Origin: Eledone cirrhosa
Taxonomy: Eukaryota
NCBI GenBank assembly: GCA_964016885.1
Contig: OZ024741.1
Coordinates: 166,966,001-167,030,000 of the forward strand
Direction: 5' to 3'
Length of the DNA: 64,000 bases
The notes beneath the pieces are model-generated. The model was not told where the DNA came from and ran no database searches. It saw nothing but the letters and a program-made list of their open reading frames with translations. The translations under genes were made by a program, and so were the position numbers. Numbering within the stretch: the first letter of the stretch is position 1; each line of letters starts with the position of its first letter. Shown one piece after another: positions 17,812 through 18,018 of this stretch.

Positions 17812-18018
17812 ATAGGAACGAGTAGGACTCCGACGGCTGAGCTCAAGCCGTTTCCACGGCTAATTCTGGACTAAATTTAGTCCAAAATTAGCCGTCGAAA
17901 CGGCTTGAGCTCAGCCGTCGGGGTCCTACTCGTTCCTATTACCCACTCTACTACCCTAAGTATTGAGTACTTTGGTGCCTTATGGTCCACCTGGCTCCTT
18001 ACCACATTTCCTTCGTTA
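17812..18018 (+). mobile_element. Fold-back element in (TA)n; palindrome 17812-17939 plus 79-bp tail; hammerhead 3' half
   Basis: Centre ctaaa|tttag; GAAA-CGGCT(TGAGCTC)AGCCG-TC-GGGGT; copies at 27264-27476, 33776-33970 and 34385-34496. Confidence 0.8.

Follow-up and report, generated by a model that had tools for sequence, protein, structure and literature searches.

Palindromic stubs of a Penelope-like element in Eledone cirrhosa as a likely record of its transcription start and ribozyme cut site

In the 64,000-nucleotide stretch of the Eledone cirrhosa genome analysed here, referred to as the window, a 128-bp palindrome at positions 17812-17939 (three mismatched pairs, centre 17875/17876) is followed by a unique tail of 79 nucleotides and by (TA)n. 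Judged by its motifs, compared by eye, and by its (TA)n target, this insertion is a short copy of a Penelope-like retrotransposon (PLE) of the Hydra clade, which represents a new family within a known clade whose family type and inverted-plus-tail layout have been described before. We consider it about 70% probable that the insertion was made when both ends of the cut (TA)n target primed separate cDNAs, which ran off the likely capped 5' end of the RNA and were joined head to head. The parent element, the (TA)n target, outer ends fixed at +61 and +140, variable junctions between the arms, a wall of 5' ends at about +1 where untemplated G is in excess, and a further peak of ends at +42 are directly observed, and the stubs likely record, as read from their sequence, both the transcription start and the ribozyme cut site. 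In the numbering used throughout, +1 corresponds to window position 17879, the predicted ribozyme cut (+41/+42) to 17919/17920, the end of the pLTR to +61 and the end of the tail to +140.

The insertion is bounded on its left side by a remnant of the (TA)n target (17801-17814), recognized from the sequence, whose last bases overlap the outer end of an inverted, tail-less arm (17812-17876, minus strand) running from +61 back to about -3. Comparison with long copies defines a 2-nt overlap (AT, 17875-17876), which is common to this arm and to a forward arm (17875-17939) comprising the 3' part of the pLTR from -3 to +61. The forward arm, which like the features within it and the tail lies on the plus strand, contains position +1 (17879), the mode of the 5' wall and the putative capped transcription start within loop II of a hammerhead ribozyme, and the 3' half of this type I hammerhead (17889-17924), consisting of the 3' strand of stem II (17889-17896), GAAA (17897-17900), stem III (17900-17918), C17 (17919) and the 3' strand of stem I (17920-17924), with the predicted cut at 17919..17920, where other copies show the second peak of 5' ends. 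The tail (17940-18018) equals the 79 nucleotides with which the element body begins after the pLTR and is followed by the right (TA)n remnant (18017-18180). We infer that the inverted arm is a cDNA primed at a start site at the pLTR end and that the tail end marks a second start site of the reverse transcriptase (RT). An earlier note on this DNA had listed the right half as stem II 3' strand, GAAA, stem III, TC and GGGGT and had found an inverted copy in place of the missing 5' half of the hammerhead, and the focal copy reads in this way on both counts. The note had also ascribed the same geometry to three further copies. They do share the layout, and the copy at 27264-27476 (minus strand) resembles the focal one in subfamily and layout with a different junction, but the centres differ in the other two, namely in a copy of a diverged subfamily at 33776-33970 (plus strand), whose arms end at about +7 and +2, and in a copy at 34385-34496 (minus strand, read by eye), where the tail arm has an internal deletion and stops near +20, whereas the longer tail-less arm reaches +6. 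Short-read contigs from four runs of one study, possibly of the assembly's own sample, span the unique left flank into the arm, which speaks to presence only, and an Rfam scan of the window returned nothing at gathering thresholds.

The descent from a hammerhead-bearing retroelement that the earlier note proposed is borne out by the parent PLE. Two of 30 copies selected by their tail (L057 and L059) lack the inversion and extend on their upstream side through a 3' UTR of 1.2 kb as far as a GIY-YIG C-terminus, and in the full-length copy L101 the tail leads on to the 5' UTR and the ORF. The parent of about 3.5 kb (unit about 3.54 kb) encodes an RT and a GIY-YIG endonuclease, whose pieces, carrying YRDD and a C-terminal YIG, were found in L092, L096-L098 and L101, with frames that are broken by frameshifts in the copies read. 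Its protein motifs comprise RLRWR, SDKT, CNCPDGSIC (a CxCx5C linker), CNLC (CxxC), CKH (CxH), YRDD and YIG, while no CCHH motif was seen by eye in the alignment of the endonuclease and a Pfam search of two ORF pieces gave no match. Further hallmarks of PLEs found here are the tandem or partial tandem structure of the pLTRs, inverted truncated copies and the tail. According to the accessible part of Craig et al., 2021 (PMC8557442), the Hydra clade is characterized by an RWK-type motif, DKT, a CxCx5C linker, CxxC and CxH around E and N, and (TA)n targets, and inverted truncated copies with a one-sided tail are known in PLEs. Members such as Hydra-1_Obim share with the present element the RT with C-terminal GIY-YIG and the motifs RW(K/R), DKT, CxCx5C, CxxC and CxH, and the clade shares with it (TA)n targets, a hammerhead near the 3' end, inverted 5'-truncated copies and a tail at one end (PMC8557442). 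Conversely, Hydra-1_Obim belongs to another family, as judged by eye against the supplementary protein, and the Hydra-clade elements described there differ in their unit of less than 3 kb, compared to about 3.54 kb, and in tails of 30-40 nucleotides instead of 79 (PMC8557442). The hammerhead of the present family, in turn, has a full stem III, a stem II that is long and a core with either U3-A8 or C3.A8, and about nine in ten of its tail-bearing copies are without the hammerhead 5' half. Full units occur in head-to-tail arrays (G000:C1:91476610-91487262, C1:437200348-437210966 and C2:320551593-320558706) with a period of 3,531-3,544 bp, typically 3,542 bp, and these arrays are candidate sources of read-through RNA. 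A neighbouring Hydra-like family (L093:367-2890) retains an open RT frame of 642 amino acids and a GIY-YIG frame, with homologues at 31-38% identity; it was this family and not the focal one that served as query of the protein search, which thus provides alignment context only.

A 36-mer across the boundary of arm and tail has 13,903 exact matches in the 3.0-Gb genome compared to none for its reversed control, so the palindromic layout is not due to chance and the focal copy is one among no fewer than 13,900 short insertions of this element in TA repeats. For the analysis of ends, we used 91 copies in genome order, taken from the first 92 of the 13,903 matches listed, in which 63 inverted arms were parsed (L221, with mis-parsed arms, was dropped, and the classifier missed a few other visible inverted arms). 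In 59 of the 63 the inverted arm begins at the pLTR end (+61) beside (TA)n, and 89 of the 91 tails end at +140 next to (TA)n. The junctions between the arms, on the other hand, vary, with 58 distinct ones among the 63 copies. Tail-less ends at +61 also close long copies that are not inverted, and +61 is for this reason a start site in its own right. Short copies combine a tailed with a tail-less arm in 64 cases compared to a single case with two tails, which suggests coupled priming on one complex. The hammerhead 5' half is absent from about nine in ten tail-bearing copies, and that of one subfamily has 925 exact matches genome-wide. Random stretches totalling 600 kb contained 10 clusters, which are too few for statistics.

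The inner ends of both arms pile up near +1. Among 91 forward-arm ends, 48 fall between -5 and +8, 17 between +9 and +40, eight between +41 and +43 and eight between +44 and +53, with one each at -32 and -10 and eight in long copies, while 42 of 63 inverted-arm ends are located between -5 and +8, 16 between +9 and +40, three beyond and two at -9/-10, none reaching below -10. This wall is independent of the inversion, as copies joined directly to (TA)n stop there too and units of direct tandems restart at +1 to +4 in seven of nine loci (at +42 and +11 in one each). It also keeps its register in the diverged subfamily, where seven of nine ends lie at +1/+2 by eye. At the wall, the element is frequently preceded by a G. 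Genome-wide, G(A/C)GTCC starts have 3,842 exact matches compared to 1,280 with A, and GA starts, as estimated from the first 100 matches listed of each, number about 3,150 compared to about 630 AA starts, whereas the long-parent pattern with G before +1 has nine matches, only six of which are true parents. Many of these cases could derive the G from the inverted arm, and only the set of places joined to TA, which is small, is clean in this respect; in its 45 members, counted by hand with two triplets merged, G precedes +1 in six, A in two and nine are ambiguous. In L238, each arm bears a different untemplated end. For L1 and SVA, an untemplated 5' G has been explained by the RT copying the cap (PMC3287187), and an internal promoter was described for Drosophila Penelope (PMC2377424), as far as the accessible parts of both studies extend. 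Because both arms stop near +1, G is in excess and the register is kept in the diverged subfamily, the RNA likely has a capped start at about +1, within hammerhead loop II. A splice acceptor at +2 was considered and rejected, since most ends keep +1/+2 and there is no constant upstream exon. In 18 of 100 matches listed, about one in five G-preceded starts, GC is found before G+2, and zero-loop centres are common at that place; A+1 seems to be misread and is perhaps a modified base next to the cap. Long runs of A or T, suggestive of slippage of the RT or of tailing at the 5' end of the RNA, are found at the junction in L051, L055, L168 and L188. Against a capped start stands the observation that none of the long body-bearing copies among 30 loci starts at +1. 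Where the body extends to the locus edge, nearly all hold more of the upstream pLTR, and full-length copies would therefore need a read-through tandem RNA or a further template jump.

The hammerhead itself can be described from long copies, which carry the 5' half that is missing from the short ones. The earlier note had expected such copies with a CTGAnGA core; the 5' half is found, the core is not, as the consensus in long copies is YUGAnAA. The 53 complete hammerheads in fetched loci, a sample biased to the queried subfamily, contain CTGAGAA in 39, TTGAGAA in seven and TTGATAA in seven cases, with G8 in none of them, and the 3-8 pair is correspondingly U3-A8 in 14, a C3.A8 mismatch in 39 and C3-G8 in none. 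An alternative register of the core with a missing N7 was rejected, since positions 3 and 7 differ among subfamilies, whereas A8 is invariant. U3-A8 is a known variant in hammerheads of Schistosoma PLEs, as reported in the accessible part of PMC4209133, whereas the C3.A8 mismatch is expected to impair cleavage. A three-way junction of stems I, II and III is the lowest-energy fold in two U3-A8 copies (L261 and L274), while in L101, a C3.A8 copy, an alternative fold is lower in energy; z-scores of the folds against shuffled sequences were not significant. In the native stem II, +11 to +18 pair with a strand near -37 to -29, about 35-50 nucleotides upstream. Since short copies lack this strand, their long hairpin is a product of the inversion and not the native stem II, and the earlier note's equation of this hairpin with the ribozyme stem II is not confirmed. 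Animal non-LTR retrozymes resemble the stubs as non-autonomous, hammerhead-related derivatives of PLE pLTRs, but are direct tandems with complete ribozymes, whereas the stubs are inverted with half a ribozyme, as far as the accessible text of that preprint extends (bioRxiv 10.64898/2026.07.22.740005). Unlike retrozymes, the stubs appear to be dead-end products. Short direct tandems do occur in L263/L264 (257-bp units), at G000:C2:356030079-356031001 (299-bp units) and in L294 (47-bp units); those of L263/L264 and L294 begin anew at about +1, as repeated jumps between templates would do, and are retrozyme-like but with half a ribozyme.

The second peak of 5' ends coincides with the predicted ribozyme cut. 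Eight of 91 forward arms end at +41 to +43 (p 5e-4 versus neighbouring positions) and, among the first 100 matches listed and counted by hand, 13 of 47 distinct places start exactly at G42, with four more compatible and no clean start at +39 to +41 (p about 2e-7 on a crude uniform null). Joints to 17920 are also contained in short-read contigs, which attests their presence only. In L293, a complete U3-A8 hammerhead ending with C41 is joined to a G-preceded +1 start, and in L297 and L298 C41 is joined to +1/+2. Such joins are rare, with three exact cases and one false one among nine matches to a search for them, the rest being joined at +44 to +47. The decay of CpG as source of the T before G42 was considered unlikely, since +41 starts that retain C are nearly absent. 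We regard the second peak, judged from these junctions, as the likely footprint of self-cleavage of the ribozyme at +41/+42 in vivo. Starts at G42 occur also in a lineage mostly carrying the C3.A8 mismatch, and +42 is located near the base of stem III, where pausing of the RT is possible.

Latter property forms part of another explanation, in which two cDNAs are likewise primed separately, but where the wall at +1 is a stop of the RT or a break of the RNA caused by structure, processing or a bound protein, and where +42 is a pause before stem III. It is consistent with the weak loop II hairpin, whose 3' strand covers about -6 to +5, with the spread of ends across -5 to +8 and with the lack of full-length copies beginning at +1. 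We nevertheless find it unlikely, as the hairpin has a stability of only -0.7 to -4.7 kcal/mol, yet the RT passes stem III (-4.9 to -7.1 kcal/mol) in most copies, and as a stop does not predict an excess of G. In addition, the diverged subfamily retains the register although its flanking sequence differs, and a pause before stem III would place ends at +40/+41 instead of +42.

The earlier note had proposed that a single cDNA folds back and primes itself at the ribozyme hairpin and that the inverted arm then joins (TA)n. In a fuller form of this model, the new end would join by TAT microhomology, and later deletions in the palindrome would account for asymmetric arms. The note had predicted centres that peak in the stem II loop with variable outer breakpoints, and the inner breakpoints do cluster in this region, but the outer ends, in the 59 of 63 arms described above, are fixed. 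In its favour, both arms are identical at +46 to +53 in 49 of 60 copies, whereas arms paired at random would agree in 27%, a concordance explained as well by a single RNA or source locus as by fold-back; nine of 63 junctions are compatible with a hairpin, including L205 and L251 at an alternative hairpin over +12 to +27; later deletions could shorten either arm; and head-to-head palindromes of PLEs were read as self-priming by Arkhipova et al., 2013, in the accessible part of that study (PMC3846280). However, in 19 of 63 short copies the inverted arm exceeds the forward one by more than 3 nucleotides (by at least 15 in 12), compared to 16 where it is shorter and 28 where the arms agree within 3, which counts against fold-back because a folded-back arm cannot hold sequence that is absent from the first arm. 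Similarly, of the 15 long insertions in head-to-head orientation, four have a tail-less arm exceeding the other by more than 50 nucleotides and six a longer tail arm, with four where both arms are tailed and one that is even. Altogether 37 of the 63 short copies have either an insert (27 copies) or a longer inverted arm, and the same wall is found where no inverted arm exists. Zero-loop centres at 4-bp palindromes (15 pairs among the first 100 matches listed; L177, L181, L195, L207 and L244) fit two annealed ends and not a hairpin. In the predicted fold, the 3' terminus of a cDNA that stops at +2, +1 or -3 remains unpaired. Closure of stem II would require extension to about -35, and the interval from -46 to -29 contains the end of a single forward arm out of 91. 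A fold-back at stem II is thus not supported and largely refuted as main route, which leaves it quite improbable. The ribozyme stem is likely not a hinge, and the palindrome would be centred there because the RNA begins there. The least credible reading, a fixed palindromic non-autonomous element (a MITE or a SINE-like master) copied as a unit, could draw on the fixed outer ends, a few recurring centres and the 40 near-identical copies retrieved with a palindrome-shaped query, but is refuted for the bulk of copies, in line with the earlier note's preference, because the 63 copies in genome order have 58 distinct junctions, so that the internal structure is not uniform, because arm lengths form a continuous range up to full-length elements and because both arms track the parent's subfamily variants. 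In practice, such stubs are open to mislabelling as MITEs.

In the preferred reading of two cDNAs primed from both target ends, the GIY-YIG domain would cut both strands of (TA)n, with one target 3' end priming at +140, where the tail ends, and the other at +61, where the pLTR ends. An internal promoter would start the RNA at +1 inside hammerhead loop II, and the priming sites would therefore lie only 61 and 140 nucleotides from the cap, with the RT running off after a few dozen bases and at times copying the cap as an extra G. End-joining would then connect the two cDNA ends, which may be trimmed, share short overlaps or receive inserts. As the stretch covered is identical for the two cDNAs, either one would have been displaced or two RNAs from one source used. 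RNAs with a complete hammerhead would cleave themselves at +41/+42, and the downstream fragment would give rise to copies starting at G42, whereas long copies might originate from read-through arrays or from a short cDNA jumping to the RNA 3' end. A bolder generalization, which we hold to be doubtful, is that Hydra-clade PLEs start their RNA in hammerhead loop II, so that most insertions would be paired strong-stop cDNAs from a dimeric RT, and that the ribozyme, complete only at the 3' copy, would cut at +41 in vivo, so that the RNA retains a terminal redundancy of 41 nt to which the strong-stop cDNA could jump. Such a retrovirus-like first strand transfer would, if true, account at the same time for the pLTR, for the tail and for why PLEs have hammerheads.

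Twin priming of L1 was reportedly described by Ostertag and Kazazian in 2001. As in the stubs, the second target end primes internally in this process, which leads to an inverted arm that is joined by end-joining or microhomology, but the L1 cDNAs cover adjacent, non-overlapping parts of the RNA, whereas here both cover +1 to +61 from fixed starts and generate a true palindrome, as judged against the accessible part of PMC11702581. A purified PLE protein cut and extended both strands and began reverse transcription at two internal positions on either side of the tail (Frangieh, 2024, PMC11167929), which matches the start sites at +61 and +140. The element of that study, PAc Poseidon, resembles the present one in vitro, with an AT-rich target that is cut and extended on both strands and two internal RT starts bounding the tail, but in that study RNA reads that stop at the hammerhead cut were not seen and cleavage was not needed in vitro, whereas here genomic 5' ends peak at the cut, and its accessible text leaves 5' junctions and head-to-head products unaddressed (PMC11167929). 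Penelope elements of Adineta vaga (Arkhipova et al., 2013, PMC3846280) share head-to-head inverted pLTRs, an optional tail on one of them and a pLTR with an Inr-like motif. Their palindromes were read, in the part of that work available, as self-priming on an antisense template, whereas our junction statistics favour two sense-templated cDNAs and argue against the published reading. No footprints of cap or cleavage at 5' junctions of PLEs were found in the literature searched, which included the accessible text of PMC13282606 and bioRxiv 10.64898/2026.07.22.740005, with subscription journals, Repbase entries and preprint supplements outside the search. The origin of inverted pLTRs and tails and the role of hammerheads in PLEs are stated to be open in the accessible parts of Craig, 2021 (PMC8557442) and Frangieh, 2024 (PMC11167929), and the junction record makes both questions directly testable, as thousands of junctions lead to predictions at the level of single bases, namely that the RNA is capped at +1, that the ribozyme cleaves at +41/+42 and that the two target ends prime in a coupled manner at +61 and +140.

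The window contains additional repeats. A second, unrelated palindrome at about 18226-18363 (window 18180-18415) has a similar layout, with a unique side piece of about 50 nucleotides and (TA)n flanks, and likely belongs to another PLE family. A dispersed repeat of about 188 bp is found at 11605-11792, 13235-13422, 16268-16455, 19985-20180, 32128-32313, 44339-44662 and 57147-57334, and in five of these seven places a piece of 41-48 nucleotides matches the PLE 3' UTR at 83-85%. Large minisatellite arrays occupy 5527-11114, 45122-47202, 50668-51717, 57693-58742 and 59589-64000, with units of 22, 65, 70, 17 and 25 bp, respectively.
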